The notes: generated by a model not told the origin, from the sequence alone. Counted from the stretch's first letter, positions 6,846-25,660 are shown. The stretch is 42,234 bases of DNA from Betaproteobacteria bacterium (GCA_043759115.1 JAYVME010000327.1:1-42234); one strand, 5' to 3'. Numbers and translations are program-made.

Positions 6846-7600
6846 ATATACGCACCGTCGACGCCGTGCACGGCTGGCGCTGGCTGGTACAGGGTGTTGT
6901 TATTTTCCGCAAGAACCCAGCGCAGTGGCTGCTGCTTATCGCGACTCTGTATGCCGGTAGCCGTATCCTGCTGCTGCTGCCTTTCATCGGATTGGCCGCG
7001 ATTCTGGTCACGCCCAATTTTCTCGCCGGCCTCGCGCACGGCGCGCAGGCGCTCGAAGAAGGCAAGCCGCTGCGCTTCGGCTATCTCGCGAGCGGATTTC
7101 TGAAAAGCGGAGCGCAGCTCGTTACCATCGGCGGGGTGTCGCTGGTTGGTCACTTCCTGATGCTGATCGCAATGGCGGCGGTCGCCGGCGAGGCGCTGTC
7201 CGGCATCGCGCAAACCATGGCCGCGGGCGCGATCACCGCGGACACCGTAAATGCGATGCGCGCCGCCGCACCCCGTCTGCTGTTAAGCGCGCTTATCGGC
7301 CTCGGCATCTCGCTGCCCATAATGCTCGCGGTGTGGTTTTCGCCGTTGCTGGTGTTTTTCGATGATATGAAGCCGGTGCCTGCCATGCTGCTGAGCTTTT
7401 GGGCTTGCGTAAAGAATGTCCTGCCGCTGTTGGTCTACAGCATCGCGGTGCTGGGACCGATCTTTGTCATGACGCAAATCGGCATGGCGCTCACCGGCCA
7501 GCCCGACCTCGGCATCTGGTTGCTGGCGCCGGTACTCGTGCCTTCGCTTTACGCGGGCTATCGGGACCTGTTTGTTCGCGAACCGGTCGTGACCGCTTAA
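6842..7600 (+). CDS. Multi-pass inner-membrane protein (BPSS1780-like family, from memory)
   Basis: ATGA overlap with the thrB stop. There are several hydrophobic helices, and the N-terminus (HGWRWLVQGVVIFRKNPAQWLLL) resembles a Burkholderiales membrane-protein family. Confidence 0.6.
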   Translation: MNIRTVDAVHGWRWLVQGVVIFRKNPAQWLLLIATLYAGSRILLLLPFIGLAAILVTPNFLAGLAHGAQALEEGKPLRFGYLASGFLKSGAQLVTIGGVSLVGHFLMLIAMAAVAGEALSGIAQTMAAGAITADTVNAMRAAAPRLLLSALIGLGISLPIMLAVWFSPLLVFFDDMKPVPAMLLSFWACVKNVLPLLVYSIAVLGPIFVMTQIGMALTGQPDLGIWLLAPVLVPSLYAGYRDLFVREPVVTA

Positions 7601-7609
7601 ACGCAAGCG

Positions 7610-9877
7610 TCACGCCGCGCTCAATTTCGCGTACTCGAGCGCCAGCCATTTCGTGCCATTGCGGTCGAAATTGACCTGCACGCGCGCATCGCCGCCGCGG
7701 CCTTCGGCATTAACGATTATGCCGGCGCCGAATTTCGGATGCGTAACATTCTGTCCGACGTGCCACGGCGAAGCCGGGTCCGGCGAGCCCGCCTCCCGCA
7801 CAACGGCCGGTTTGTCATAACGCGATGCCGCCGCATAAGCGCCGCGATTTCCGTGCGCCGGCGGCGCGTGCGTGGCATAGGCTCCCGCGCGATTGACGCG
7901 CTTGAGCAGCGCTTCCGGAATCTCGTGAAAAAAACTCGATGCGATGTTGTAGCGCGTCTGCCCGTGCAGCATGCGGCTTTGCGCGAACGACAGATACAGG
8001 CGCCGCCGCGCGCGCGTCAGCGCCACATACATCAGCCGCCGCTCCTCCTCCTTGCCGTCGGCCTCGGACAGGCTGTTCTCGTGCGGAAACAGCCCCTCTT
8101 CGAGTCCGCTGATAAACACGCTGTGGAATTCGAGGCCTTTCGCCGAATGCACGGTCATTAACTGCAACGCATCGGCGCCGGCCTGCGCCTGGTTATTGCC
8201 GGCTTCGAGCGCGGCATGGGCGAGGAACCCGGTGAGGCTCGTGTCATCCTGCGCTTCGTCCGCGATAAAACCCGCCGCGGCATTGATCAGCTCGCCGAGA
8301 TTTTCGAGCCGGTCCGCGCCCTCGCGCTCCTTTTCGTAGTGCTGCTTGAGTCCGCTGTGCACGATCACGTGTTCGATGATTTCGGGCAACGGCAGGCCGT
8401 CGCATGCCGCGCGCATGCTGGCTATTAGCGCCACAAAGCCCGCGATGCCTCGCAAGGATGAAGGCGGAGGGATGAAGGATGAATCCGAATCCGAATCCGA
8501 ATCCGCTTTGTCCTGCTTTCTTTCATCCTTCATCCTTCCGCCTTCCGCCTTCAAGCGCGCCGCCGTCCACAGGCTCGCAACGCGGCTGGTGGCGAGATCC
8601 TGCAGTTGTTCGACCGAGCGGTTGCCGATGCCGCGCGTGGGGAAATTTATGATGCGCAGCAGCGCGCCGTCGTCTTCATCACTCGCCAGCACGCGCAGGT
8701 AAGCGAGCGCGTGCTTGATCTCCTGGCGCTCGAAAAAGCGCAATCCGCCGTAGACGCGGTACGCGATGCCCGCATTGAAGAGGCCGTGCTCGATCACGCG
8801 TGATTGCGCATTCGAACGGTAGAGCAGCGCGATATCCGACAGCCGCAGGCCCTCGTGGTGCAGCGACTTTACCTCGTCGACGATAAAGGCGGCTTCATCG
8901 ATGTCGGTGCCCGCCTCAAAGACGCGCAGCGGCTCGCCCTTGCCTTCCGCGGTCCACAGATTCTTGCCCAGCCGCTTCTTGTTATGATCAATGAGCGCGT
9001 TGGCGGCGTCCAGTATATGGCCGTGCGAGCGATAGTTTTGCTCGAGCTTGATCACTTTTTCGACCGTGAAGTCTTTCTGCAAATCCTGCATGTTCGCGGC
9101 CGAAGCGCCTCTGAAAGCGTAGATCGACTGGTCGTCGTCGCCGACCGCGAATAGCGCATTGTCGCCGCCGGCCAGGAGCCGCAGCCACTGATACTGCAGG
9201 CGGTTGGTGTCCTGGAATTCGTCGACCAGGATATTGCGGAAGCGGCCGCGATAATGGTCGCGCAGAATTTCGTTCTTCGACAGCAATTCATAACAACGCA
9301 GCAGAAGTTCGGCGAAATCGACCACGCCTTCGCGCTGGCATTGCGCGTCGTAAATCGCGTAGAGTTCCTGCAAGCGGCGCGAGAAACCGTCATAGTCGTC
9401 GGCGTCGACCGCGCGTTTGCCGGCGTCTTTGTGGCTGTTGATGTACCACGCGATCTGGCGCGCGGGGAACTTCTCTTCGTCGACGTTGGCGGCCTTCATC
9501 ATCCGTTTGATGAGCGCCAACTGGTCCTGGCTGTCGAGAATCTGAAAGAGCTGCGGCAGCCCGGCCTCCTGAAAATGCGCGCGCAGCATGCGGTTGCACA
9601 GGCCGTGAAAAGTACCGACCCACATGCCGCGCGTATTGATCGGCAGCATCGCGCCGATGCGTGAGAGCATCTCCTTCGCGGCTTTGTTGGTAAAGGTGAC
9701 CGCGAGCAACCCCGCTGGGCTCGCCTGCCCGGTCTGGATCAGCCAGGCCACGCGCGTCGTCAGCACGCGAGTTTTTCCGCTGCCGGCCCCGGCGAGTATC
9801 AGCGCCGACTGGTGCGCAAGTGTGACGGCTTCGAGTTGCGGCTCGTTAAGACCGGATAGGAAGGAGGGCGACGGCAT
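7610..9877 (-). CDS. uvrD: DNA helicase II (UvrD), carrying an in-frame repeat-element insertion
   Basis: LILAGAGSGKTRVLTTR, VTFTNKAAKEM, VDEFQDTN and VHSAKGLEF helicase motifs, plus a UvrD-type C-terminus (GQNVTHPKFGAGIIVN). 755 aa. Confidence 0.95.
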   Translation of the reverse strand: MPSPSFLSGLNEPQLEAVTLAHQSALILAGAGSGKTRVLTTRVAWLIQTGQASPAGLLAVTFTNKAAKEMLSRIGAMLPINTRGMWVGTFHGLCNRMLRAHFQEAGLPQLFQILDSQDQLALIKRMMKAANVDEEKFPARQIAWYINSHKDAGKRAVDADDYDGFSRRLQELYAIYDAQCQREGVVDFAELLLRCYELLSKNEILRDHYRGRFRNILVDEFQDTNRLQYQWLRLLAGGDNALFAVGDDDQSIYAFRGASAANMQDLQKDFTVEKVIKLEQNYRSHGHILDAANALIDHNKKRLGKNLWTAEGKGEPLRVFEAGTDIDEAAFIVDEVKSLHHEGLRLSDIALLYRSNAQSRVIEHGLFNAGIAYRVYGGLRFFERQEIKHALAYLRVLASDEDDGALLRIINFPTRGIGNRSVEQLQDLATSRVASLWTAARLKAEGGRMKDERKQDKADSDSDSDSSFIPPPSSLRGIAGFVALIASMRAACDGLPLPEIIEHVIVHSGLKQHYEKEREGADRLENLGELINAAAGFIADEAQDDTSLTGFLAHAALEAGNNQAQAGADALQLMTVHSAKGLEFHSVFISGLEEGLFPHENSLSEADGKEEERRLMYVALTRARRRLYLSFAQSRMLHGQTRYNIASSFFHEIPEALLKRVNRAGAYATHAPPAHGNRGAYAAASRYDKPAVVREAGSPDPASPWHVGQNVTHPKFGAGIIVNAEGRGGDARVQVNFDRNGTKWLALEYAKLSAA
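8454..8552. repeat. Complete GGATGAA-family inverted-repeat element with a (TCCGAA)3.5 core, inside the uvrD reading frame
   Basis: Left arm aaggatgaaggcggagggatgaaggatgaa (8454-8483). Core tccgaatccgaatccgaatccg (8484-8505). Right arm tttcatccttcatccttccgccttccgccttc (8521-8552). Translated as AEGGRMKDERKQDKADSDSDSDSSFIPPPSSL. Confidence 0.9.
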
Positions 9878-9903
9878 TGAGCGGATTTCGCTGCGACCAT
9901 TTG

Positions 9904-9932
9904 ATTATAGTACAGGGCTCGCAACATGTCGC
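9904..9932 (-). promoter_or_regulatory. Candidate sigma70 promoter of uvrD
   Basis: On the minus strand there is a perfect TATAAT (9909-9904) and GCGACA (9932-9927) with a 17-nt spacer. The -10 box lies 27 nt upstream of the uvrD ATG. Confidence 0.3.
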
Positions 9933-13560: not shown

Positions 13561-13663
13561 AAGGATGAAGGCGGAAGGATGAAGGATGAATAACATAGAC
13601 AAGCCGAAATCTTTAGAGAAAATTGTTTTTTCATTCATCCTTCATCCCTCATCCTTCATCCTT
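13561..13663. repeat. GGATGAA-family inverted-repeat element at the leuS-lptE junction
   Basis: Left arm aaggatgaaggcggaaggatgaaggatgaa (13561-13590). Right arm ttcattcatccttcatccctcatccttcatcctt (13630-13663). It starts 9 nt after the leuS stop and overlaps the 5' end of the lptE ORF. Confidence 0.9.
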
Positions 13664-14125
13664 GTGGCGGCAGCCTTATTGCTCTCCTCCTGCGGCTTTC
13701 ATCTGCGCGGCCAGGCCGCGTTGCCGTACGAGTCGATGTACATCAGCGGTTCGCCGTCGTTCGCCACCCAAATTTCGCGCGCGGTGCGCGCCGGCAGCAC
13801 AACGCGCATTACGAACAATCCCAAGGACGCGGAGGTCACCCTGCAGATTCTGAGCGAGGCGCGCGAGCGCTCGATACTGTCGCTTTCGTCTAACGGACGC
13901 GTGCAGGAACTGCAAATTCGCTATCGTGTTTCATTCCGCGTCTTCGACAAGAATAGCCGCGAATACGTCGCGCCAAACGAAATTCTGCTCAAGCGCGACT
14001 TGCTCTACAGAGATACCGACGTGCTCGGCAAGGAGCAGGAAGAGGCGCTGCTCTACCGCGACATGCAGAACGACGCGGTGCAGCAGGTGGTGCGCCGCCT
14101 GCAGGTCGCTCGGATTGAACCCTGA
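13586..14125 (+). CDS. lptE: LPS-assembly lipoprotein LptE (start codon uncertain)
   Basis: Lipobox LLSSC followed by GFHLRG, in the conserved leuS-lptE-holA order. The ATG at 13586 and the first 26 codons lie inside the repeat element; the in-frame GTG at 13664 is an alternative start. Confidence 0.85.
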   Translation: MNNIDKPKSLEKIVFSFILHPSSFILVAAALLLSSCGFHLRGQAALPYESMYISGSPSFATQISRAVRAGSTTRITNNPKDAEVTLQILSEARERSILSLSSNGRVQELQIRYRVSFRVFDKNSREYVAPNEILLKRDLLYRDTDVLGKEQEEALLYRDMQNDAVQQVVRRLQVARIEP

Positions 14126-14128
14126 TTG

Positions 14129-14187
14129 AACCGCCAAGATTCTTTTCCATACCTCCTTGAGAGGTATGGAAAAGAATCTTGGCGGTT
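14129..14187. repeat. Perfect 27-bp stem / 5-nt loop hairpin between lptE and holA
   Basis: aaccgccaagattcttttccatacctc cttga gaggtatggaaaagaatcttggcggtt. There is no downstream U-tract. It ends 7 nt before the holA ATG. Confidence 0.9.
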
Positions 14188-14193
14188 AACTTC

Positions 14194-15213
14194 ATGCGCA
14201 TTTCCACCGAACAACTCCCCCAGCATCTGAAGCGCGGGCTCGCGCCGCTGTACATCGTCTACGGTGACGAGCCGCTGTTGGCACTCGAAGCCGCCGACCG
14301 CATCCGCGCGACGGCGCGCGCAGACGGCCACCTTGAGCGCGAAGTACTGACCGCCGAACAACACTTTGACTGGTCGCAATTGCGCATCAGCAGCCAGTCG
14401 CAATCGCTGTTTGCCGCGCGCCGCATACTTGAATTGCGCATACCCAACGGCAAACCCGGCAACGACGGCAGCCAGGCATTACAGGAATATTGCGCGCAGT
14501 TGCCGGCCGACACTCTCACGCTGATCCTGCTGCCGGAGATCGATTGGCGCGCGCAAAAAGGCGCCTGGTTCGGCGCGCTCGACGCAGCCGGACTGATGAT
14601 CGAGGCCGCCCAAGTCAAGCGCGACAAGCTGCCTGCGTGGCTGGCGGGCCGGCTCAAAACGCAGGACCAATCCGCCGCTGCGGACACGCTCGAATTCATT
14701 GCCGATAAAGTCGAGGGCAACCTGCTCGCGGCCTATCAGGAGGTGCAGAAGCTCGCGTTGCTGTTTGCGCCCGGCGCGCTGTCGTTTGACCAGATCAAGG
14801 AAGCGGTGCTCGATGTCGCCCGCTTCGACGTGTTCGATCTGGGCGACATCGCGCTCTCCGGTGACGTGCAGCATCTTGTACGCGTGCTCGACGGGTTGCA
14901 AGGCGAAGGCGCTGCGGCGCCGCTGGTGTTATGGTCGATCACCGAGGAAATCCGCGCCGTCGGCCGCGTGCTGGCGGGGCTCGCCGCCGGCCGGCCGCTG
15001 CCGCAGGCGATGCGCGACGCGCGCATCTGGGGCCCGCGCCAGAATCTGATTCAGCAGCATATCAACCGCTGCACGCCGGAGCGAATCGAAGCCGCCCTCG
15101 TGCACGCGGCGCGCATCGACCGCATGATCAAGGGTCTCGCGCGCGGTGACGTGTGGGACGAATTGCTGCAACTCGGGCTGCGCTTTTCCCGCAAGCCCGC
15201 CAAGGCCGCGTAG
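14194..15213 (+). CDS. holA: DNA polymerase III subunit delta
   Basis: LYIVYGDEPLL N-terminus, correct length and conserved position after lptE. The ATG at 14194 is preferred over the TTG at 14179, which lies within the hairpin arm. Confidence 0.88.
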   Translation: MRISTEQLPQHLKRGLAPLYIVYGDEPLLALEAADRIRATARADGHLEREVLTAEQHFDWSQLRISSQSQSLFAARRILELRIPNGKPGNDGSQALQEYCAQLPADTLTLILLPEIDWRAQKGAWFGALDAAGLMIEAAQVKRDKLPAWLAGRLKTQDQSAAADTLEFIADKVEGNLLAAYQEVQKLALLFAPGALSFDQIKEAVLDVARFDVFDLGDIALSGDVQHLVRVLDGLQGEGAAAPLVLWSITEEIRAVGRVLAGLAAGRPLPQAMRDARIWGPRQNLIQQHINRCTPERIEAALVHAARIDRMIKGLARGDVWDELLQLGLRFSRKPAKAA

Positions 15214-15235
15214 AAACACGCTATCATTGATTTTT

Positions 15236-15309
15236 AGGATTGAGGATCGAGGAGTGAGGATCGAGTAAGGTTCTACTGAGCTCCATCCCGATCCTCGATC
15301 CTCAATCCT
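15236..15309. repeat. AGGATYG-heptamer inverted-repeat element between holA and proA
   Basis: aggattgaggatcgaggagtgaggatcgag (15236-15265) ... ccgatcctcgatcctcaatcct (15288-15309). The first 18 nt of the left arm are perfectly complementary to the last 18 nt of the right arm. Confidence 0.85.
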
Positions 15310-15320
15310 GTATTTCATCC

Positions 15321-16577
15321 ATGGACATCCAAAGCTACATGACAGGGATCGGCAAACAAGCGCGGGCCGCGTCACGCCTGGTCGCCAAAGCCGACACCGC
15401 CACCAAGAACAAGGCGTTGACGCTCACCGCGCAGGCAATCGAGCGCAATATCAAGCGCCTGCTCGCCGCGAACGCCGAGGACCTCGACGCGGCGCGCGCG
15501 AAAAAACTCGAGCCGCCGCTGATCGATCGTCTGACGCTGACCGCCCACAGCATCGCCGACATGGCCGACGGGCTGCGCCAGATTGCCAGCCTGCCCGACC
15601 CGATCGGTGAAATCAGCGAACTCAAAGAGCAGCCCTCCGGCATCAAGGTCGGCCGCATGCGCGTGCCGCTGGGCGTGATCGCCATCATTTACGAATCGCG
15701 GCCCAACGTCACTGCGGATGCGGCCGGACTGTGCCTCAAAGCGGGCAACGCCTGCATCCTGCGCGGCGGCTCGGAAGCGATTAATTCCAATCAGGCCATC
15801 GCCGCCTGCGTCCATGCCGGACTCGAAGACGCCGGCCTGCCCGCGACCGCGGCGCAGGTCATAGCAACCACTGATCGCGCGGCGGTGGGCGAACTCCTGC
15901 GCATGAATGAATACGTGGACATCGTCGTGCCGCGCGGCGGCAAAGGATTGATCGAGCGCGTGATGCGGGAGTCACGCATCCCGATGATCAAGCACCTGGA
16001 CGGCGTGTGCCACGTCTACGTCGATGACAAAGCGGACATCGACAAGGCGATCCGCATCGCGGACAACGCCAAGACGCAACGCCTGGGCACCTGCAATACG
16101 ATGGAAACGCTGCTCGTCGCGCGCGGCATCGCCGGCCGTGTGCTGCCGCCGCTCGCGCAGATCTACCGGGACAAAGGCATCGAGCTGCGCGGCGACGAGG
16201 CGGCGCGTAAAATTGTGCCGGGAATGAAACCCGCGACCGAGGAAGACTGGACTACCGAATATCTTGCCGCCATCCTCGCCGTGCGCGTGGTCGACGGACT
16301 CGAGCAGGCGATCGAGCATATTGCCCGCTACGGTTCGCAACACACCGATGCTATCGTGACGGAAGACGAGGCCCGCGCCAGTCGCTTTTTGCGCGAAGTC
16401 GATTCAAGTTCCGTGATCGTCAACGCGTCAACGCGCTTCGCCGACGGCTACGAATACGGGCTGGGCGCCGAAATCGGCATCTCGACCGACAAGCTGCACG
16501 CGCGCGGCCCGGTGGGGCTCGAAGGACTGACGTCGCTGAAATGGATTGTTTTCGGCGACGGCGAAATCAGAGAATAG
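15321..16577 (+). CDS. proA: Gamma-glutamyl phosphate reductase
   Basis: 418 aa aldehyde-dehydrogenase-fold ProA ([25 protein letters not shown]). Confidence 0.95.
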
Positions 16578-16636
16578 TCACTAAATAATTACAATAATTA
16601 CCGCTCGTCGGAGGCAACGTTTTTGCCGCGTAACGG

Positions 16637-17929
16637 ATGAAAAAAATCACTCCAGATAACAACGAAGATCTGCCGCTGAATCAGTTCTTCGCCAACGGTG
16701 TGCTCGAAAGCGATTTGCAAGCGCTGGCGCCGTTGATGAATTCACGCGCGATGCTCAACGCCTTCATCATGGTGTTTCGTGGCGGTGAAGCGGAAATTCT
16801 TATTCGGTTGCTGGTAATGCGTGAAATCGGGGGGCGTCCCGATGCGCCACGGTGGAGTCCACAAGAACTCGCGCAACATTTTTCGTATCTCGATCCGGTA
16901 AAACTGAATACCGTACTGGATCGCCTGAAGGAATACGGCTTGCTGATATGGGACAGCGAGGATCGCACCTATCAGTTGAGCGGCACTGCGCGCGTGACGC
17001 TTTCCGCGTTGGCCAATGTACTGGCCCTGCCTGCGGGGGTAGACGCCGACCTCGCGTATATCACCTCGCAGGTCGCCGCCGGACAATCCATCGGACGGCC
17101 TTCGCTGGAGGCGCTTAATCTGCTGCTCACAAAATATCGCGAGCTACAGAAAGAATTCGAGGACGCACTGGTCAGCGGCTCGGAGTTTCGCATCCGCCAG
17201 GCCAGCGCCAAATTCAACGCCGTCGAATCCACTGTCGAGAAGGGCAACGACATCATTCGCTCGCTGATGAAAAATGGCGAACTCGAAGACGCAATGTACC
17301 GCAATGCGCAGGCCATCGGCCAGGCGCAAAGCCATCTGTTGCGCATGCACGCCGCGTTCCAGCGCACCCTGCACGCGCTTGAATTGCAGAGCGTATCGCT
17401 GGGCGGCAGCGGTTTGTCTTCGTCCGATGTAGTGCAATGGCTGCGCACGCTCGATCAGGATCGCCTCGCGGCGCTCGGCGCGCGCACCCTCGGCGGTATG
17501 CAGCCCTTGCCGTTCGCCATGAGCGACCTGATGCTTGATGTCGCCGAATATGAATTGCTGGAGCGTGAGCGCCTGGCTCAGGAAAACACTGCGCTGCCGC
17601 CGCCGTGCGACGCACCCGGTACGAACGAAATGTCCACCGAGCGTTTCTTGGCACTCGATCGATTTGTCAGCCAGCTTGCGGAAATAAAATCGCCAACGCC
17701 GCTCGCTGATGCCGTGGTAAATGGCGGCTACGCGCTATCGGCATACCGGTTGTCGCTGCTGGCTTTGATCGCAGATCCTGAGTCAGCCGAGATGCGCGGG
17801 CGGATCGCGGATCTTGCGCGCCTGCCGCTGCGCGTCATGATTTCAGATGATCACGAAGCCGTGGCGCGCGATGAAGTCGCGCAGATCAGCTGTGGCGCGC
17901 TGACGCCTGCTGCCACAGACGCAGTATGA
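16637..17929 (+). CDS. Kleisin-like subunit candidate (JetA/MksF-like) of an SMC-type defence operon
   Basis: 430 aa. It has a winged-helix-like segment (LDRLKEYGLLIWDSEDRTYQLSG), a long helical middle and a second globular C-terminal part. It is the first gene of a four-gene cassette and overlaps the next gene by ATGA. The family assignment is inferred from context. Confidence 0.55.
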   Translation: MKKITPDNNEDLPLNQFFANGVLESDLQALAPLMNSRAMLNAFIMVFRGGEAEILIRLLVMREIGGRPDAPRWSPQELAQHFSYLDPVKLNTVLDRLKEYGLLIWDSEDRTYQLSGTARVTLSALANVLALPAGVDADLAYITSQVAAGQSIGRPSLEALNLLLTKYRELQKEFEDALVSGSEFRIRQASAKFNAVESTVEKGNDIIRSLMKNGELEDAMYRNAQAIGQAQSHLLRMHAAFQRTLHALELQSVSLGGSGLSSSDVVQWLRTLDQDRLAALGARTLGGMQPLPFAMSDLMLDVAEYELLERERLAQENTALPPPCDAPGTNEMSTERFLALDRFVSQLAEIKSPTPLADAVVNGGYALSAYRLSLLALIADPESAEMRGRIADLARLPLRVMISDDHEAVARDEVAQISCGALTPAATDAV

Positions 17930-18585
17930 CCGACGATGCGCAAGTGTTGATCGCGCGTCTGATCACCGAACGCTGGGTACCGCGCGCCGATGCGCTGTCG
18001 CGGCGCGTGCTGGTGGACGAAGAGTTTCGTGAGGAAATCGAACGCCGCCTCGCCGCCTGCGGATTGCGTCTGCTCGACAACCCATATGCGACGCATATCG
18101 CGCTGGGGCTTGCCAACACCGCTGAAGAACCGGTGCTGGCGCGCGACGGACAATGGCTATCAAGCAATCTGGGCCTTGCACGCGATTGCGTGGCGTTGCT
18201 GGTGGTGCTGTGGGCATTGCTGATATTGCCCAAGCGTGAACGGCAAGTCTCGCGCCGTGGTAATACGGAAACGCAACAAAACGATATGTTCGGCCTGGAG
18301 AAATCCATACCCACAGGCGGTGACGTTGAAGGCAGCCTGCCGGAGCGTACGCTCATCGCGGACTTTGGCAAACAACTCGGCGGCAAAACACGCATCGGGT
18401 TTAACCTTGGTATATTATCTCGTCACGGCTTTATCGAGCGTCATCAGGGTGTTATTCACGAAGGGCCGTTGTTGGATCTGGCTCTCGATCACCGCGTGCT
18501 CGCGCCGCGCATACTCGACGGCGCGCTTGCTGAATTGCTTGCCGCCCGCAGCATCGAAAAAGCGCCGGACGTGAACAAGGAATAG
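17926..18585 (+). CDS. Small partner subunit candidate (JetB/MksE, DUF4194-like)
   Basis: 219 aa. Its size and position match the KITE-like subunit of Wadjet/Mks operons, and it is translationally coupled to the upstream gene. I identified no motif by eye. Confidence 0.5.
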   Translation: MTDDAQVLIARLITERWVPRADALSRRVLVDEEFREEIERRLAACGLRLLDNPYATHIALGLANTAEEPVLARDGQWLSSNLGLARDCVALLVVLWALLILPKRERQVSRRGNTETQQNDMFGLEKSIPTGGDVEGSLPERTLIADFGKQLGGKTRIGFNLGILSRHGFIERHQGVIHEGPLLDLALDHRVLAPRILDGALAELLAARSIEKAPDVNKE

Positions 18586-18590
18586 CGCCG

Positions 18591-21395
18591 GTGTTTCATC
18601 TGAAAAGCATCGAGCTCGTGCATTGGGACTACTGGCAACGATTTCGCCAGACGCTCGACGCCAGTATCGTCGCCATCGTCGGCCCCAATGGCTCGGGCAA
18701 AACCACACTGCTTGACGCACTGCGTACTTTGTTTGCGCTTCAATGCGCGGGCAAACGCGACTACAAACGCTATGTGCGTCATTCCGGTGAGCCTTATGCG
18801 TGGCTGCGTGCGGTAGTCGATAACCGCCGCATCGGCAACGTGCGGCACCCGTTTTTTCCGCTACTGGAGGACGAAGTAACGCTGGTGTGCCGCATCCGCA
18901 AGCAAGGCGGCGACTGGCAGCGCCAATATCTGATCGCGCCGGGCGATGCGCCGATTGATGAAGCGATGGAGCGCTCGCCCGATTGGCTGGGCGTACGCGA
19001 TTACGAACGGCGTCTGGCGAACGGCGGATTAAGTACCGCCATCGCGCAAGTGCTCGCGCTCGAACAAGGCGAGACCGACCGCTTGTGCGAATACACACCG
19101 AAAGAGTTGCTCAATCTGGTATTTCATGTGTTCGGCGACAAGCGCGTGCTCGACGACTACCTGCAAGCGCGTGCCGACCAGCGGGACGGCGAAGCCGAGC
19201 TCGACAAGCTCGACGGCGATCTCGCACGCACGGTCAACGAACATGAGGCATTTATCCAGCGCGCCAATCGCTATCAGCAATGGCGCGATTTGAAAAGCGA
19301 AGAAACACTGCTGGAAGCCGAGATACGCCCGCGCGTCGAACTCGCCGAGTTGAGACTATCGATACGCGGCGCGGAGAGCCGACTGGAAGGTTTGCGGCGT
19401 CAGGCGGCGGAGCATCAGATACAAATTGATCATGAAGATCGGAGGCTGGCGCGCACTAGAGACGCGCTGGCGGCATCCGCCGCGCAACAGAAAAGCGCCG
19501 CTTTCGCGCGCGAGACCGCCGCAGCGCAGCACGACACGGCGCTGACCCGCGTCACGGAAACCAGAAGCATGCTGAGTGAACGCAGCCGCCTGCGCGAACA
19601 ATCGCTCGCCGCAGGCAAGGATAGCGCGCAGGCTGCATCACGGCTGGAACAAAGCCGGCCCAAACTGGCGGAAGTCAAAGCCAAAATTGTGGGCCTCACG
19701 CAACGCAATAGCGAATTCAGCACGCGTCTTGCCGCATTGCGTAGCGGCAAGCCTGCGCTACAGCCGTATGCCGCGCAGTTCCGCAGCGCGCTCGACGAAG
19801 CACGCATCGCGCATCTCATGCTCATCGAGATCGTCGAAGTTACCGATGCAGAATGGCAGGGTGCCGTGGAAGCGCTACTCGCGCCGTATCGCCATCTGGT
19901 GCTGCTCAAACGGCCGCACGACCGCGAAGCTGCGTGGCGCATCGGCGAGCGTTTGCAGTACCGCAGTTTTGTGACCCCTGATCTTGAACCGCCACACGAA
20001 GCCGTGCCGGGTAGCGTGCTGGAAATCGCGCGTTTCACCGGTGAGGCACCGGCATGGCTGACGGCTTGGTTGAATCGTGTGCAACGCGTCGAAGATGCCG
20101 CCGCCGGCGCCAAGTGCGACGCGCGGCAGGACTGGATTACCCGTGCCGGTTACCATCGTGAGCGCCGTGGCGCACGGTACGGCGGCGTGCCAGCGCGGGA
20201 TTTTCACTTTGGCGAGGCCGCGCGCCGTACGCAACTGAAAGCGCTGGAAGATGATTGCGCACAACTGCGCGTGGAACTCGATCAACTGGTCGCCGAGGAA
20301 AAAACGCTGCTTGCCGGCATTAGCCGCGATCAGGCGGTAGTTTCGGGTGTCAACGCCGCCGCGATGCTGGCGAGCCGCGCCGAGGAATTCGCCGCCGCCG
20401 AAGTACGGCTGATAACGGAGCAGGAGGCCGAACAGGAGACTGGTGCAGCGCAAAAGGCAGCGATAGAAGAAGAAGGTCGGGTACGCGGCGAACTGGGGCG
20501 GCTGAATGCGGAACAGCAGCAAATCGAAAGCGCTGTCCGGCAGGCGCAAAGTACGTTGACGGTGGCGCAGGGGCAAATCCACACGCAGGCCGACGAACAG
20601 CAAAAGCGCAACGAACGTGAAGCGCAGCTATGTTCGGGCATGCCCGCCGCGTGGCTCGATGAGCAAGCACTGGATAAACTGCTCGCAGAACAGGGATCGC
20701 TGCAAAACGTGGCAGCCCGCATCGGACAGATTCAGCGTCAACTCGAACAGGGACAGTGGGAAACCGATGAGACGGTGATCATGCGCCGCGACAAACTCGC
20801 CGAAGATGTGCAGGCCAAACGCGAACGCGTGGACACCAGCCGCCAGCAATGTGACCGCGCGAAAAAAATTACCGAAGACACGCGGGGCGAGTATCTCAAT
20901 GTGCTGCGCGCCACGGTACGAACCTACGGCAAGCATCTGCGCGAGCTGGGGCTGAAGGCGGGTATCGAAGTAGATTACGCAATGCCGCTCCTGGCCAATG
21001 ACGACATGGCGCTGGCGCAAGCCGGGCTGCTGGTTAGATTCAACTTCGACCAGAAAGGCATGATCGGGATGAACGACGGAGAAGCGTCCGGCGGGCAACA
21101 GGTGATGAAGTCTTTGATCCTGCTGATCGCGCTGACCATGGAGGCCGAACGCCCCGGTGGATTCGTGTTCATTGACGAACCGTTTGCGCACCTCGACGTG
21201 ATGAACATCGACCGCGTAGCGGCGTTTTTGCGTGCGACGCAAGCACAGTACTTGATCACCACACCGAGCACGCACAACATCAACGTGTTCAGCCCGGTGC
21301 AACTGACTCTGGTCACTCAGAAAAAACGCCCCGGTGAACGCTGGGCACCGCCGGTGGCGATGCTGCGCAGGGATGAAACCGTCAGTGCCACCTGA
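18591..21395 (+). CDS. SMC/Rad50/MukB-type ATPase (JetC/MksB-like), 934 aa
   Basis: GTG start. Walker A GPNGSGKT (18681-18704); long Ala/Glu/Gln/Arg-rich coiled-coil halves; a central hinge-like block (LIEIVEVTDAEWQGAVEALLAPYRHLVLLK); signature SGGQ and Walker B FVFIDEPF (21161-21181). Confidence 0.85.
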   Translation: MFHLKSIELVHWDYWQRFRQTLDASIVAIVGPNGSGKTTLLDALRTLFALQCAGKRDYKRYVRHSGEPYAWLRAVVDNRRIGNVRHPFFPLLEDEVTLVCRIRKQGGDWQRQYLIAPGDAPIDEAMERSPDWLGVRDYERRLANGGLSTAIAQVLALEQGETDRLCEYTPKELLNLVFHVFGDKRVLDDYLQARADQRDGEAELDKLDGDLARTVNEHEAFIQRANRYQQWRDLKSEETLLEAEIRPRVELAELRLSIRGAESRLEGLRRQAAEHQIQIDHEDRRLARTRDALAASAAQQKSAAFARETAAAQHDTALTRVTETRSMLSERSRLREQSLAAGKDSAQAASRLEQSRPKLAEVKAKIVGLTQRNSEFSTRLAALRSGKPALQPYAAQFRSALDEARIAHLMLIEIVEVTDAEWQGAVEALLAPYRHLVLLKRPHDREAAWRIGERLQYRSFVTPDLEPPHEAVPGSVLEIARFTGEAPAWLTAWLNRVQRVEDAAAGAKCDARQDWITRAGYHRERRGARYGGVPARDFHFGEAARRTQLKALEDDCAQLRVELDQLVAEEKTLLAGISRDQAVVSGVNAAAMLASRAEEFAAAEVRLITEQEAEQETGAAQKAAIEEEGRVRGELGRLNAEQQQIESAVRQAQSTLTVAQGQIHTQADEQQKRNEREAQLCSGMPAAWLDEQALDKLLAEQGSLQNVAARIGQIQRQLEQGQWETDETVIMRRDKLAEDVQAKRERVDTSRQQCDRAKKITEDTRGEYLNVLRATVRTYGKHLRELGLKAGIEVDYAMPLLANDDMALAQAGLLVRFNFDQKGMIGMNDGEASGGQQVMKSLILLIALTMEAERPGGFVFIDEPFAHLDVMNIDRVAAFLRATQAQYLITTPSTHNINVFSPVQLTLVTQKKRPGERWAPPVAMLRRDETVSAT

Positions 21396-22596
21396 AGGTT
21401 GGGCGGCGCCCGGTGCGGACGGCATATGCGTCCGCGCACTCGATGTTGGCGCGAAGACTACGTTGCGCGGACGGCGCTTGCGGCGTGCCATGACCGCCGA
21501 CACCCGCGTGATAGCCGCTTGGCCGGCGGAATGGCGTGATCTGCTTTTGCAGTGGCTGGACGGCGCTTCCAGGCGCCGCTGGAACACGTTAATCGGTCAA
21601 GCGGGAAACGCCGGCTTTAATATCGCGCACGACCTGCTTGACGCGCTGCTGCGCGCGGGCTTGGTTGAGACCGATGAAGTGCGCGAGCGCGGCCACTGGA
21701 AAACTCAACAAGTCACCTTCATCGTACGCGCTGCGCTGCGTAGCGCGTTGGGTTTGCCCGATACCGAAGCCTTGCGCGCACAGATTGCAGTCGAAATTGC
21801 CACGCCACCGCAAGATGTTCGCCTTATGCCGCTATGGGCTGACCTCGCGGATTACCCGCCCGCCCGCGGGCTCGAACGTTGCGCGCTGCTGCGCAAAATT
21901 GATGCATGGATTGCTGATAACCATTTCGGCACGCGTCGGGACTTCGCCCTGTTCGCGCGAGGCACAACCAAAGCGGTGAGCAGCTCGGAGTGGAAATGGC
22001 TAGAAACCCTGCCGGATTTCGGCGCGTTCGGAATTGAACGGCACACACCGGCGCTGTGGATGCGCGCGCCGCTTACGCTGTGTTTTGGCGACAGAAAAAT
22101 CGATCTTTCGGCGATACCCGACTTGATCGGTATTTCACCAGAGACCCTCAAGCGGCTCGACGGCGTGGCCGGCGATATCGGTTGCTGGCGCATCATCGAA
22201 AACCGCACAAGCTTCGAGCGCGCGGCGCGTGAACACGGCGATACCGATGGTGTGATCTGGATTCCCGGCTTCGCACCTAGCTGGTGGAAGGAGTCCATGC
22301 GGCGAATTCTCCAATGTAAACCCGCGCCGGCCGAGATAGCGTGCGATCCCGATCCTGCCGGCATCAACATCGCTCTTGACGCGGGCGCCGTGTGGCAGTC
22401 ATGCGGTCTCGCATGGTCACCATGGAAAATGAATGTACGCGAACTGATGCAATTGGATGCGCGCTTGCCGCTGTCTAGCCATGATAAAGTCCTTCTCGAA
22501 CAAATGACGACGCGCGTCCTGCCTGCCGCATTACGAGAGATCGCAAACTGGATGCAAGCGCACGGTGAAAAAGGTGAGCAAGAAGGCTATTTGTAA
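21373..22596 (+). CDS. Toprim-like nuclease subunit candidate (JetD/MksG, DUF2220-like C-terminus); start uncertain
   Basis: C-terminal WRIIENRTSFE (22186-22218) and CDPDPAG (22342-22362) form an E...DxD Toprim-like pattern. The N-terminal half is helical and winged-helix-like. Possible starts are 21334, 21373 (both overlap the upstream gene) or the ATG at 21490. Confidence 0.65.
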   Translation: MKPSVPPEGWAAPGADGICVRALDVGAKTTLRGRRLRRAMTADTRVIAAWPAEWRDLLLQWLDGASRRRWNTLIGQAGNAGFNIAHDLLDALLRAGLVETDEVRERGHWKTQQVTFIVRAALRSALGLPDTEALRAQIAVEIATPPQDVRLMPLWADLADYPPARGLERCALLRKIDAWIADNHFGTRRDFALFARGTTKAVSSSEWKWLETLPDFGAFGIERHTPALWMRAPLTLCFGDRKIDLSAIPDLIGISPETLKRLDGVAGDIGCWRIIENRTSFERAAREHGDTDGVIWIPGFAPSWWKESMRRILQCKPAPAEIACDPDPAGINIALDAGAVWQSCGLAWSPWKMNVRELMQLDARLPLSSHDKVLLEQMTTRVLPAALREIANWMQAHGEKGEQEGYL

Positions 22597-22651
22597 GTGG
22601 TGACATCTATCGCCGCCGCAGGGTTAATTCATAACTTTTAATGGATTTTTA

Positions 22652-24433
22652 ATGCCGAAGCTGATCGAAGTCAAAGTCCCCGATATCGGGGACTTCAAAA
22701 ACATTCCGATCATCGAAATCCTGGTCAAACCCGGCGATCATGTGCAGCCGGAAGATCCGCTGATCGCGCTCGAATCCGACAAAGCGACGCTGGAAGTACC
22801 GTCGCCGGCCGCGGGCATCGTCAAGGAACTCAAAATCAAAGTCGGCGACAAAGTTTCGCAGGGCACGCTGGTGCTCACGCTGGATACCGTCGCCGCAACC
22901 CACGCCGCGCCGGACAAAGCGGCGACGGCGACTGTGCAGCAACCCGCTGCGCCGACGCCGACGCGTGCCGCGCCACCCGCCGCATTGTTCACCGGCGACA
23001 CGGACACCGAGTGCGACATGCTGGTGCTGGGCGCCGGGCCCGGCGGTTATTCCGCGGCTTTCCGCGCGGCCGACCTCGGCCTGAAAACCGTGCTGGTCGA
23101 GCGCTACGCGGCACTGGGCGGCGTGTGTCTGAACGTCGGCTGCATTCCATCGAAAGCGCTGTTGCACGTCGCGGCGGTCATGGACGAGGCCGCGCATTTC
23201 GCGGAACTTGGCGTCGACTTCGGCAAACCGGTCGTCGACCTTGCCAAGCTGCGCGCGCATAAAACCAAGGTGGTGGGCAAGCTCACCGGCGGTCTTGCCG
23301 CAATGGCCAAGGCGCGCAAAGTCACGGTGGTGCGCGGCTACGGGCACTTTCTAGACCCGCATCACCTTGAAGTCGAAGCGACCCAGGGCGACGGGCAGGA
23401 CAAGACGGGCGGCAAAACCGTTATCTGGTTCAAGCAGGCGATCGTGGCGGCGGGTTCGATGCCCGTCAGGCTGCCGTTCGTGCCTGAAGATCCGCGCATC
23501 GTCGATTCGACCGGCGCGTTGACGCTGCCCGTCATTCCCAAACGCATGCTCGTCATCGGCGGCGGCATCATCGGGCTTGAAATGGCGACCGTGTATTCGA
23601 CGCTCGGCAGCCGCATCGAAGTGGTGGAAATGCTCGACGGCCTGATGCAGGGCGCCGACCGCGATCTGGTGAACGTGTGGCACAAATACAATGCGGCGCG
23701 TTTCGACCAGGTGATGCTCAAGACCAAAACCGTCGCCGTCGAGGCAACACCCCAGGGGATACGGGTCAGATTCGAGGGCGAACAGGCGCCCGCCGAACCC
23801 CAGATCTATGATCTCGTGTTGGTCGGCGTGGGGCGCAGCCCGAACGGCCATAAAATCGGCGCCGACAAGGCGGGCATCGCGGTCGATCAGCGCGGCTACA
23901 TTGCCACCGACCAGCAGATGCGAACCAGCGTGCCGCATATCTACGCTATCGGCGACATCATCGGTCAGCCCATGCTCGCGCATAAAGCGGTGCATGAGGG
24001 ACATATCGCGGCTGAAGTGGCGGCCGGCCAGAAATCTTTTTTCGACGCGCGGGTAATTCCGTCGGTCGCGTACACCGACCCCGAAGTCGCATGGGCGGGC
24101 CTCACCGAAGAAGAAGCGAAAAAGCAGGGCATCAAGATCGGCGTCGGCAAGTTTCCATGGGCGGCGAGCGGTCGCGCCATTGCCAACGGCCGCGACGAAG
24201 GCTACACCAAGCTTATTTTCGACCATGCCACGCATCGCATCATCGGCGGCGGCATCGTCGGCACCCACGCCGGCGACCTGATCAGCGAAATCGCGCTCGC
24301 CATCGAAATGGGCGCGGACGCGATCGATATCGGCAAGACCATTCATCCGCATCCGACGCTCGGCGAATCGGTCGGCATGGCGGCCGAAGTCTACGAAGGT
24401 GTGTGCACCGACCTGATGCCGACCAAGAAGTAA
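22652..24433 (+). CDS. lpdA: Dihydrolipoyl dehydrogenase (E3) with an N-terminal lipoyl-attachment domain
   Basis: Lipoyl domain (IALESDKATLEVPSPAAG), Ala/Pro linker, FAD site (VLGAGPGGY), redox-active CLNVGCIPSK, and a C-terminal dimerisation domain with HPHPTL. Confidence 0.95.
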   Translation: MPKLIEVKVPDIGDFKNIPIIEILVKPGDHVQPEDPLIALESDKATLEVPSPAAGIVKELKIKVGDKVSQGTLVLTLDTVAATHAAPDKAATATVQQPAAPTPTRAAPPAALFTGDTDTECDMLVLGAGPGGYSAAFRAADLGLKTVLVERYAALGGVCLNVGCIPSKALLHVAAVMDEAAHFAELGVDFGKPVVDLAKLRAHKTKVVGKLTGGLAAMAKARKVTVVRGYGHFLDPHHLEVEATQGDGQDKTGGKTVIWFKQAIVAAGSMPVRLPFVPEDPRIVDSTGALTLPVIPKRMLVIGGGIIGLEMATVYSTLGSRIEVVEMLDGLMQGADRDLVNVWHKYNAARFDQVMLKTKTVAVEATPQGIRVRFEGEQAPAEPQIYDLVLVGVGRSPNGHKIGADKAGIAVDQRGYIATDQQMRTSVPHIYAIGDIIGQPMLAHKAVHEGHIAAEVAAGQKSFFDARVIPSVAYTDPEVAWAGLTEEEAKKQGIKIGVGKFPWAASGRAIANGRDEGYTKLIFDHATHRIIGGGIVGTHAGDLISEIALAIEMGADAIDIGKTIHPHPTLGESVGMAAEVYEGVCTDLMPTKK

Positions 24434-24447
24434 CTAACAATACCGGC

Positions 24448-24472
24448 GCGCCGCGAAAGCGGCGCATTTCTT
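24448..24472 (+). terminator. Rho-independent terminator after lpdA
   Basis: gcgccgc gaaa gcggcgc followed by atttctt, 15 nt after the lpdA stop. Confidence 0.7.
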
Positions 24473-24546
24473 CCGCCGCCGCACGATCATTGGGTCTGCA
24501 CGTGGCAATTGTCTGCGATAATGTGCGTTTAGCAAAGTGACCTCTC

Positions 24547-25032
24547 ATGCGAATCTGGGTTGATGCGGATGCCTGCCCCAACCCGGTCAAGGAAATCCTG
24601 TTCCGTGCGGCGGACCGGACGCGGATCGCGCTGACCCTGGTCGCCAACAAGCCTTTGCGCACCCCGCCGTCGCCCTATATCAACACGATCCAGGTCGCCG
24701 CCGGGTTCGACGTGGCCGATGACAAAATCGCCGGCGAGTTGTGCGCCGGCGATCTCGTCATCACCGCCGACATCCCGCTTGCCGCCGCCGTGATCTGCAA
24801 GGCCGGCCATGTCCTCGATCCCCGCGGCGAGCTCTATACCAGCGACAACATCGAGGCGCGCCTGACGTTGCGCAAATTCATGGATGAATTGCGCGCCAGC
24901 GGCGTGGACACCGGCGGCCCCGCGCCGTTTAACCACGGCGACCGGCAGGCCTTCGCCCAGCAGCTGGATCGCATACTGGCGCAACACGCCCGTGCCGAAA
25001 TTGCTCCCAAACAGCCGGCGCCGGGCGCATAA
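24547..25032 (+). CDS. yaiI: YaiI/YqxD family protein (UPF0178/DUF188)
   Basis: [22 protein letters not shown]... is the typical N-terminus of the family, and the 161-aa length fits. Confidence 0.85.
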
Positions 25033-25252: not shown

Positions 25253-25660
25253 ATGGCAGTCACCAAAACAAAACTCGCAAAGTGCATTCATCACCGCGTC
25301 AGGCTGCGGCCGCCCGCGCGCCGCTTCCGCGGCGTCACGGAACTTCGCATCATGGACGACGATTGGCTCTTGCAGGAAGTCGAAGACAAAGCGGTAAGAA
25401 TCAGAAATATCCGCACCGACCACGTCGCGGTTCTCGGCTTTAATCAGATCAACGAATACGTGGCCGACCCCAAGCGGGAATTCGACGGCTTGCGCCACGG
25501 CTTCCTTGAACTTCGCGTGCAGGTATTTTTGCGCGGGCCCGAACTGGTAATCGAACCGCGCCCTTCGGCCGCGAAACCTGCAACCGCGAAACCTGCAACC
25601 GCAAAGCGCGCGGCCGCGCCGCGCAAGGCCGCGGCACCCCGCAAACGCAAGAAGATCTAG
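25253..25660 (+). CDS. Hypothetical protein with a basic AKP/AAPRK-repeat tail
   Basis: 135-aa ORF whose C-terminus is SAAKPATAKPATAKRAAAPRKAAAPRKRKKI (histone-H1-like tail). A strong hairpin follows it. Confidence 0.55.
   Translation: MAVTKTKLAKCIHHRVRLRPPARRFRGVTELRIMDDDWLLQEVEDKAVRIRNIRTDHVAVLGFNQINEYVADPKREFDGLRHGFLELRVQVFLRGPELVIEPRPSAAKPATAKPATAKRAAAPRKAAAPRKRKKI

Follow-up and report, generated by a model that had tools for sequence, protein, structure and literature searches.

A compact four-gene cassette in a stretch of betaproteobacterial DNA of 42,234 nucleotides (nt) (Betaproteobacteria bacterium, GCA_043759115.1, JAYVME010000327.1:1-42234; the whole stretch is called the window below) is probably, by analogy with characterised systems, a functional Wadjet-type plasmid-restriction system, a reading to which we assign a probability of about 0.7. 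Homology places the cassette as a new member of a compact Wadjet/MksBEFG branch that has been catalogued before; the family itself is already known. It comprises four tightly packed open reading frames (ORFs) at positions 16637-22596, all on the plus strand, as are the motifs described below. ORF1 (16637-17929, 430 aa) has the position of the kleisin subunit (MksF/JetA/MukF), ORF2 (17926-18585, 219 aa) that of the subunit of the kleisin-interacting tandem winged-helix element (KITE) type (MksE/JetB/MukE), and ORF3 (18591-21395, 934 aa, GTG start) that of the ATPase of the structural maintenance of chromosomes (SMC) type (MksB/JetC), and ORF4 (21373-22596, 407 aa, ATG start) encodes a JetD/MksG-like Toprim nuclease. 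ORF1 and ORF2 overlap by 4 nt (ATGA, 17926-17929), ORF2 and ORF3 are separated by 5 nt (18586-18590), and the start of ORF4 overlaps the end of ORF3 by 23 nt. A preliminary description of this DNA had listed four co-directional ORFs with the ATGA overlap and the 5-nt gap, and all of these coordinates were borne out. The kleisin-KITE-SMC gene order is kept across 80 homologous loci, the member of the ORF1 family always being the first gene.

The sequence of ORF3 firmly supports its assignment as a complete SMC-type ATPase. It matches the Pfam families SMC_N (8e-17), AAA_29 and AAA_21 as well as, partially, the JetC models of PADLOC (1.5e-19), and the heads of JetC rank among the solved structures closest to it in sequence, generic Smc heads scoring about equally. 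Walker A, Q-loop, signature, Walker B, D-loop and H-loop are all present and are invariant in 23 diverse homologues. Walker A is GPNGSGKT (18681-18704, with K37; G31-T38 invariant), the Q-loop region is LEQG (19059-19070; E158, Q159 and G160 invariant), the ATP-binding cassette (ABC) signature is SGGQ (21087-21098; S833-Q836 invariant), and Walker B FVFIDEPF (D862, E863) and the D-loop AHLD together occupy 21162-21197. Walker A and the signature had already been recognised in ORF3, and their positions were verified; the Walker B motif had been recognised as well, but its range of 21161-21181 was one base out of frame, the real range being 21162-21185. A long antiparallel coiled coil with a central hinge is suggested by partial matches to SMC_prok_B and to a JetC coiled-coil hidden Markov model (HMM) and by a weak match to the hinge region of Smc (4rsj_A). 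With 934 aa and its Walker motifs, ORF3 lies within the size range of the Wadjet-group census discussed below (>890 aa with Walker motifs). In one metagenome contig (L009), otherwise identical to the window, the SMC gene is split by the gene caller into segments of 273 and 608 aa (7102-7923 and 8080-9906), the cause being either a mistake in assembly or a population allele with a frameshift.

The matches of ORF3 would also be compatible with membership of a different SMC-like defence family, e.g., Lamassu or the methylation-associated MADS, since the best PADLOC match of ORF3 is mad3 (1.2e-24) and LmuB is matched at 1.5e-16. However, these matches cover only part of the ATPase and the coiled coil, and neither an LmuA-type effector nor a methyltransferase or any other MADS gene is present in the operon or its 10-kb surroundings. 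Instead, the partners of ORF3 are a protein with a KITE fold, a MukF-like protein and a JetD-like Toprim protein, and a member of the family (locus L066) is found inside the MksB clade of a published SMC tree (PMC7617805). Membership of Lamassu or MADS is therefore highly improbable.

ORF4 is, on the basis of its motifs, firmly supported as a JetD/MksG-like Toprim nuclease with an E...DxD pattern. The JetD models of PADLOC match its C-terminal half at 3.7e-14, and all 83 aligned ORF4 relatives match these models co-linearly (protein residues 230-418 to positions 215-404 of the 409 model positions). Two motifs had been read in the preliminary description as the Toprim pattern, and both were found at the positions given and are conserved in the alignment of 83 sequences. 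In the acidic motif WRIIENRTSFE (22186-22218), E289, N290, R291, T292, F294 and E295 are invariant, and in the DxD motif CDPDPAG (22342-22362), C337, D338, P339, P341 and G343 are invariant and D340 is conserved in at least 90% of the sequences (E289, D338 and D340 are numbered on a 420-aa version of ORF4). In the same alignment K413-E417 of a C-terminal KGEQEG motif (22570-22587) are invariant. ORF4 of the window matches no Pfam family (threshold E<=0.1, as for ORF1 and ORF2) and no NCBIfam family, and some of its homologues at 47-51% identity have a weak match to PF09664 (DUF2399); 19 of the 83 relatives match the PADLOC model JetD2.

The homologues of ORF4 have lengths of 405-408 aa, and a conserved N-terminal block, W..AP..DG....LDVGA.TLRGRRLRR in the same alignment, is encoded at 21400-21486, upstream of 21490. 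Therefore, translation of ORF4 starts at the ATG at 21373 and not at 21334 or 21490. Earlier, a length of about 370-420 aa and an overlap with ORF3 had been proposed unless the start was at 21490; the overlap stands, and the later start is contradicted by the homologues. A public gene call for an identical protein (P0121, 368 aa) has a start equivalent to 21490 and is thus devoid of 39 conserved N-terminal residues. A distant ORF4 homologue (34% identity) is found on plasmid 2 of Variovorax sp. RA8 (NZ_LR594663.1, L090 7541-12204) and also in NZ_LR594690.1. In L090 it adjoins the gene for a 457-aa 'ATP-binding protein' that abuts an IS1071 transposase gene, followed by xseA-xseB; this megaplasmid locus may be what is left of a related SMC-nuclease cassette.

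ORF2 has no match in Pfam, NCBIfam or PADLOC. The AlphaFold2 (AF2) model has moderate confidence (predicted local distance difference test, pLDDT, 65.8), and its top Foldseek match is the JetB chain 8as8_C (E=3.6e-5, probability 1.0, template-modelling (TM) scores 0.55/0.61). The JetB matches as a group, from the Wadjet systems of E. coli and P. aeruginosa (8as8_C, 8dk1_E/F), range from E=3.6e-5 to 2.6e-4 with TM scores of 0.52-0.68, and they are followed by Nse3/Nse1 and MukE. The model thus firmly supports ORF2 as a single KITE protein with two winged-helix domains. At the level of sequence profiles, comparison of ORF2 with E. coli MukE by hhalign gave a probability of 0.1%.

The assignment of ORF1 as a kleisin is tentative and is suggested by its model. 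ORF1 likewise has no Pfam, NCBIfam or PADLOC match. Its AF2 model (mean pLDDT 79.7) contains, in this order, a winged helix (about residues 51-114), a long helical bundle (about 116-250), a low-confidence linker and a winged-helix-like C-terminal domain (about 356-424). The top eight Foldseek matches in the PDB are all MukF chains, and they are weak (E=2.5e-3 to 7e-2) with a global TM score of about 0.15. In the profile comparison of ORF1 with E. coli MukF by hhalign, a probability of 0.1% was obtained. In a set of 1.84 billion proteins, 323 representatives of the ORF1 family were counted (E<=1e-3), and every one of them is labelled "hypothetical". Its distant relatives match no named Pfam kleisin family, JetA included, and a route through them to such a family was tried and yielded no bridge. 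The family profiles of ORF1, ORF2 and ORF4 did not match any PDB chain, including those of JetA/B/D, MukE/F and MksG. In the SMC/kleisin/KITE/Toprim logic that had been proposed for the cassette, the SMC, KITE and Toprim components are thus firmly supported, and the kleisin component is tentative because of its weak fold matches to MukF. The earlier remark that ORF1 and ORF2 have no family-defining motifs agrees with the results of the three libraries.

In the characterised type I and type II Wadjet systems, an SMC motor extrudes DNA and recognises small circles, and a Toprim dimer cuts. By analogy, ORF3 would form the SMC ATPase dimer, the ORF1 kleisin would bridge the two ATPase heads, its N-terminal winged helix and helical bundle probably pairing two motor units, and an ORF2 KITE dimer would be bound to the kleisin, with ORF4 as the Toprim nuclease effector. 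The complex of ORF1-3 would load on DNA and perform ATP-driven loop extrusion. On a small circle, extrusion would run to completion and lead to a cleavage-competent state, in which a dimer of ORF4 would then cut the DNA, so that plasmids would be restricted and the chromosome would be spared. For the cassette, we infer the stoichiometry, loop extrusion, the specificity for circular DNA and cleavage from analogy only.

The behaviour of the cassette in its genomic context bears on a defence role. The synteny table of the family was built with tblastn from the best 80 loci, all of which had been chosen for carrying the cassette. Because this is a biased sample, further metagenome loci were picked via proA, the gene directly upstream of the cassette. 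Among the matches listed, 80 such loci were fetched, 65 of which had enough downstream sequence. None of these 65 informative loci among the matches listed contained the cassette, a value that is not a population frequency; proA was directly followed by lpdA in 14 of the 65, and by nadD-rsfS in 28. The closest flanks among the matches listed all belonged to empty sites, namely L091, L094 and L103 (holA 82-83% and lpdA 84-85% identical to the window) and L097 (holA 75%, lpdA 82%). In a tree of holA and proA, the cassette-bearing window and locus L010 are nested among at least four empty-site lineages. Since lpdA comes immediately after proA in the loci that resemble the window most in their flanks among the matches listed, the cassette is an indel. 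The claim that it is inserted between proA and lpdA was therefore right with regard to the indel and not with regard to a foreign origin, and the counter-possibility considered in the preliminary description, that all relatives carry the cassette at this locus, does not apply, as shown by these empty sites.

In the window's clade the divergence of the cassette is decoupled from that of its flanks. The p-distance between L014 and L021 is 0.03 for the flanks vs 0.19 for the cassette; between L017 and the window it is 0.29 for the flanks and 0.19 for the cassette, and between the flank sisters L017 and L020 it is 0.17 and 0.24, respectively. In pairs from this clade, ORF1 is 71-87% identical, against 55-88% for the flanks. 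In most comparisons the nuclease is the fastest-evolving subunit. The distances are suggestive of allele exchange at a fixed proA|lpdA hotspot, and this apparent exchange is not proven, since the trees have no bootstrap support and the loci are from metagenome-assembled genomes (MAGs) and metagenome contigs. Taken together, the cassette has the behaviour of an accessory element, exchangeable at its fixed hotspot, and not that of a core gene, as is typical of a defence locus.

These observations also bear on the possibility that the cassette is an inactive, decaying remnant without current function. The SMC gene called in two pieces in L009 and the frequent lack of the cassette in relatives would agree with decay. 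However, none of the four window ORFs is interrupted, their starts overlap or abut, all catalytic motifs are conserved, and relatives keep the four proteins at 71-91% identity; a remnant is thus very hard to reconcile with the data, and we regard it as most improbable.

The base composition gave little indication of a recent arrival. The GC content of the cassette is 0.603 vs 0.623 for the rest of the window. In the preliminary description, 45-58% had been reported inside vs 67% outside, based on three hand-counted 60-nt samples inside the cassette; this contrast was not confirmed, and such samples are little informative because the standard deviation of single 60-nt windows is 0.06-0.08. The argument from GC content for a recent foreign insertion was therefore rejected, the samples being within the noise of such windows. 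A real but modest gap exists at third codon positions (GC3), with 0.65-0.68 in the four cassette genes vs 0.73-0.82 in flanking genes (13586-16577 and 22652-25032), and it could reflect low expression or a separate history. Both junctions are indeed short and AT-rich, as had been described: the left one, from the proA stop to the ORF1 start (16578-16636), has 59 nt with a GC content of 0.44, and the right one, before lpdA (22597-22651), has 55 nt with a GC content of 0.40. Simple scans found no promoter- or terminator-like sites on the plus strand in either junction; the first terminator-like site beyond the cassette follows lpdA (24448-24465). Insertion scars were sought and not obtained, as the junctions could not be aligned with empty-site spacers and the longest shared repeat had 8 nt vs up to 10 nt in shuffled sequences. 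Altogether, the proposed foreign origin found no support, given that the same site is occupied in Nitrosomonadaceae, the kleisin+SMC tree matches host taxonomy, no plasmid copy and no flanking repeats were found, and the GC contrast fails.

The cassette is preceded by leuS, lptE, holA and proA and is followed by lpdA, which encodes a lipoyl domain, a DUF188 gene and an RNB-family gene; there is no integrase or transposase gene within about 10 kb. The location among housekeeping genes and outside a defence island corresponds to what had been noted initially.

Relatives of ORF1 are present in about 270 species, according to a scan of GTDB species genomes. The order lptE-holA-proA-F-E-B-G-lpdA is shared by the window's clade and Nitrosospira/Nitrosomonadaceae, with an ORF1 identity of no more than 51% in the latter. 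Lineages differ in the nuclease gene: it is adjacent in Hydrogenophilales, several Geobacteraceae and others, is located about 1 kb downstream in Dechloromonas/Azonexus, and is missing at the locus in Pseudoxanthomonas, Luteimonas, Luteibacter (e.g., L. flocculans, CP063231) and most Chitinibacteraceae (e.g., HSL-7, CP197642). The divergence of the cassette follows that of its flanks in Nitrosomonadaceae, Xanthomonadales, Dechloromonas/Azonexus and Hydrogenophilales, where its conservation equals or exceeds theirs, and a neighbour-joining tree of kleisin and SMC tracks host taxonomy. In Desulfuromonadales the flanks have no genes in common between genomes.

Additional genes are found within the cassettes of some lineages. 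In Dechloromonas sp. SSD3 (L044 14731-15591), a same-strand ORF of 286 aa without a Pfam match lies between the SMC and nuclease genes, and similar gaps of 850-1012 nt are present in L051, L074 and L076; the 286-aa ORF might encode a fifth subunit peculiar to this lineage or might have been inserted. In Dechloromonas/Azonexus the cassette follows prfB. The operons of Chitinibacteraceae are interrupted. In Chitinivorax sp. B (L003 11260-11712 and 12404-13153), a GNAT acetyltransferase gene separates the kleisin gene from the KITE gene, and the SMC gene is preceded by an SBP_bac_3 gene on the opposite strand, and in Iodobacter arcticus (L065 11336-11995), an unannotated ORF of 219 aa lies between the kleisin and KITE genes. 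Several other genera have gaps of 700-950 nt at this position. A Methylophilaceae MAG (GCA_013141125.1; L006 10001-11293 vs L004/L005/L033) has all four genes, with the nuclease gene unlinked: it is directly upstream of nadD-rsfS-rlmH, and F-E-B follows proA. This layout would fit an ancestral proA-FEBG-nadD order that was later split by rearrangement. For L004, the gene caller gives only an SMC fragment of 113 aa, and tblastn detects most of the SMC gene. Two MAG contigs (L028 10001-13473 and L029 4559-8062) have the kleisin and KITE genes directly upstream of lptE-holA and no SMC gene in the fetched locus; these are either split or decayed operons.

The distribution of the family accords in part with a chromosomal function, in which the cassette would mainly be a chromosome-organising MksBEF/MukBEF-like condensin that keeps or loses an ancestral nuclease, with loop extrusion on the chromosome of the host as its chief task and ORF4 being minor or regulated. 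The cassette is found at one and the same chromosomal site from the window's clade to Nitrosomonadaceae, the kleisin+SMC tree matches host taxonomy, the neighbours are housekeeping genes and no plasmid copy was detected. In addition, the three-gene version of Xanthomonadales and Chitinibacteraceae is syntenic, is conserved at least like its flanks and has intact ATPase motifs, the nuclease gene of the Methylophilaceae MAG is unlinked from the other three, and a published proposal derives MksBEF and MukBEF from Wadjet via loss of JetD. However, the cassette is dispensable in the window's clade, where the closest flanks listed have an empty site, its divergence is decoupled from that of the flanks, the catalytic residues of the nuclease are invariant wherever the gene is present, and the GC3 values of the cassette are below those of its core neighbours. 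A purely vertical housekeeping condensin is weakened further by the empty sites in the proA-selected survey together with the decoupled divergences. We therefore consider a condensin function of the window's cassette unlikely; it has to be taken seriously, however, for the nuclease-less, slowly evolving and syntenic operons of Xanthomonadales and Chitinibacteraceae.

Several of our results weigh against a Wadjet-type restriction system. The kleisin assignment of ORF1 depends on weak fold matches (E=2.5e-3, TM about 0.15), no link at the level of sequence, profiles included, connects ORF1 and ORF2 with MukF, MukE or JetA/B, and the N-terminal half of ORF4 does not match the JetD models. Carriage on plasmids was also considered: ORF1 had zero matches among 72,556 plasmids, and ORF4 had three weak matches. 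The cassette lies among housekeeping genes, outside any defence island, and several lineages inherit the operon stably in conserved synteny, many of them without an operon nuclease, which fits a chromosomal role. Furthermore, a literature search found no paper that characterises, types or experimentally tests this compact clade. We nevertheless favour a plasmid-restriction function of the cassette, because a role in defence in this organism would agree with the presence/absence polymorphism, the apparent allele exchange at the hotspot and the rapid evolution of the nuclease.

It is also conceivable, though we regard it as doubtful, that this one family shows a domestication from Wadjet to condensin at several stages. 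In the window's clade, the cassette may be a four-gene defence locus that is dispensable and exchangeable and occupies a fixed hotspot; as a four-gene operon it may be inherited stably in Nitrosomonadaceae, Hydrogenophilales and Dechloromonas/Azonexus; and in Xanthomonadales and Chitinibacteraceae, it may have lost the nuclease and become a slowly evolving, syntenic three-gene MksBEF-like condensin. The origin of MukBEF/MksBEF from Wadjet by nuclease loss is a proposal from the literature that is untested and not documented within a single clade. If the domestication is real, the related operons with vs without a nuclease would permit a direct test of the transition from an SMC immune sensor to a chromosome organiser. 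The family offers natural pairs in this respect, i.e., operons with the nuclease present or absent and operons that are hotspot-polymorphic or stably inherited, which bear on the proposed origin of MukBEF/MksBEF.

A second implication is a gap in annotation. Pfam, NCBIfam and PADLOC v2 have no model for the kleisin and KITE proteins of this clade and weak ones for its nuclease. Automatic typing fails because the three libraries have no model for ORF1 and ORF2; as a consequence, such operons are annotated as an "ATPase" and three hypothetical proteins and are probably missed as Wadjet systems. With an SMC protein of about 930 aa and a kleisin of about 430 aa, the architecture is among the most compact of the Wadjet architectures, and this compact form could help structural or single-molecule work on the relation of arm length to the sensing of DNA size.

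A few other features of the window were recorded. At 25253-25660 there is an ORF of 135 aa without a recorded Pfam match that has an Ala/Lys/Pro-rich C-terminal repeat tail (AKPATAKPATAKRAAAPRKAAAPRKRKK); the tail resembles the histone-H1-like tails of some nucleoid-associated proteins, and a tandem repeat lies at 25569-25602. Short tandem repeats with units of 7 and 14 nt, the function of which is not evident, occur at 15236-15265, 13634-13663 and 3625-3654. One of them consists of two copies of AGGAGTGAGGATCG in the holA-proA spacer, and the others are TTCATCC and CGTGAGG heptamers. Scans of the window for tRNAs and Rfam families found neither.

The comparison with known systems makes the place of the cassette more precise. 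In type II Wadjet (Neobacillus vireti JetABCD), the KITE is a tandem protein of four winged-helix domains and the coiled coils are much longer (bioRxiv 10.1101/2025.03.10.642339), whereas the KITE protein of the window is a single protein of 219 aa with two winged-helix-like modules and its SMC protein is short (934 aa), so that these features of type II are lacking. For the C-terminal DUF2399 domain (PF09664) of type II JetD the picture is mixed: some ORF4 homologues match it weakly and 19 of 83 match JetD2, and ORF4 of the window itself has no Pfam match. With MukBEF of E. coli and with MksBEF of Pseudomonas aeruginosa the cassette has the F-E-B order in common, and the best fold matches of the ORF1 model are to MukF; it differs by its conserved nuclease, MukB is far longer, and there is neither sequence similarity of the window proteins to MukF/MukE nor a Pfam match to MukF or MukE. 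From the nuclease-less MksBEF condensin of Pseudomonas aeruginosa it differs by its nuclease gene, which is absent from the operons of its relatives in Xanthomonadales and Chitinibacteraceae.

Wadjet as defined via Pfam by Doron and colleagues in 2018 reportedly consists of JetA with DUF3375, JetB with DUF4194 and JetD with DUF3322 and DUF2220. In a test for types I and III with these Pfam families, ORF1, ORF2 and ORF4 had no match. Type I Wadjet JetABCD (E. coli GF4-3, P. aeruginosa PA14) and MksBEFG of Corynebacterium glutamicum nevertheless have the same kleisin-KITE-SMC-Toprim order as the window, the fold of ORF2 is closest to JetB, and the Toprim part of ORF4 is co-linear with the JetD models and has the E...DxD pattern. 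The differences are in size and sequence. The SMC protein has 934 aa vs 1096-1119 aa in solved JetC chains and the kleisin has 430 aa vs about 480-520 aa in typical census entries, in agreement with the initial impression that both are shorter than canonical. Moreover, ORF1 and ORF2 match neither the Pfam nor the PADLOC families of JetA/JetB, and the JetD models leave the N-terminal half of ORF4 uncovered.

The closest relationship is to operons of an iterative profile census of the "Wadjet group" (Bürmann et al., Cell 2025; PMC7617805). Its Data S1 contains an FEBG operon of Geobacter sp. UBA9964 (GCA_003490025.1, contig DNJC01000016.1) with sizes of 422 (F), 229 (E), 943 (B) and 410 aa (G). 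This contig is the one that carries our homologous locus L066, the proteins of which have 44-46% identity to those of the window (45% for ORF3), and the novelty that had been considered for the cassette is thus not supported. The MksB protein of this locus, HBA86877.1, belongs to a 100%-supported clade of nine in the published MksB tree, together with those of Janthinobacterium sp. Marseille, Pseudogulbenkiania sp. NH8B, Desulfuromonas acetoxidans, D. soudanensis, Hydrogenophilales 17-64-34, Xanthomonadaceae SCN 69-25, Azoarcus sp. and Massilia albidiflava, the last with FEB (PMC7617805). Window ORF3, which is not itself in the tree, is thereby placed indirectly, via its homologue, inside the MksB/JetC/MukB clade. 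The nearest sister groups of the clade have similarly compact operons in Acidobacteria, Lentisphaeria and Firmicutes, e.g., Brevibacillus, Aneurinibacillus and Desulfitobacterium (PMC7617805).

We had considered the missing host genera in the census table as evidence of an overlooked family; this argument was dropped, as the table lists sparse representatives and does contain the clade. The earlier statement that the subtype is not recognisable therefore holds for the HMM libraries, in which ORF1 and ORF2 are unmatched, but not for the literature. The census paper catalogues the compact clade without a function, structure or type, and no mention of the hotspot behaviour or of the conserved synteny of the family was found in its text and files (PMC7617805). 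Eight operons of the clade could be retrieved, with sizes of 409-457 (F), 226-275 (E), 923-943 (B) and 381-429 aa (G). The cassette of the window, itself unlisted in the census, shares gene order and subunit sizes with this compact FEBG clade, and the host taxa overlap. The current understanding of Wadjet and its relatives is thus not overturned, and a known group is extended.

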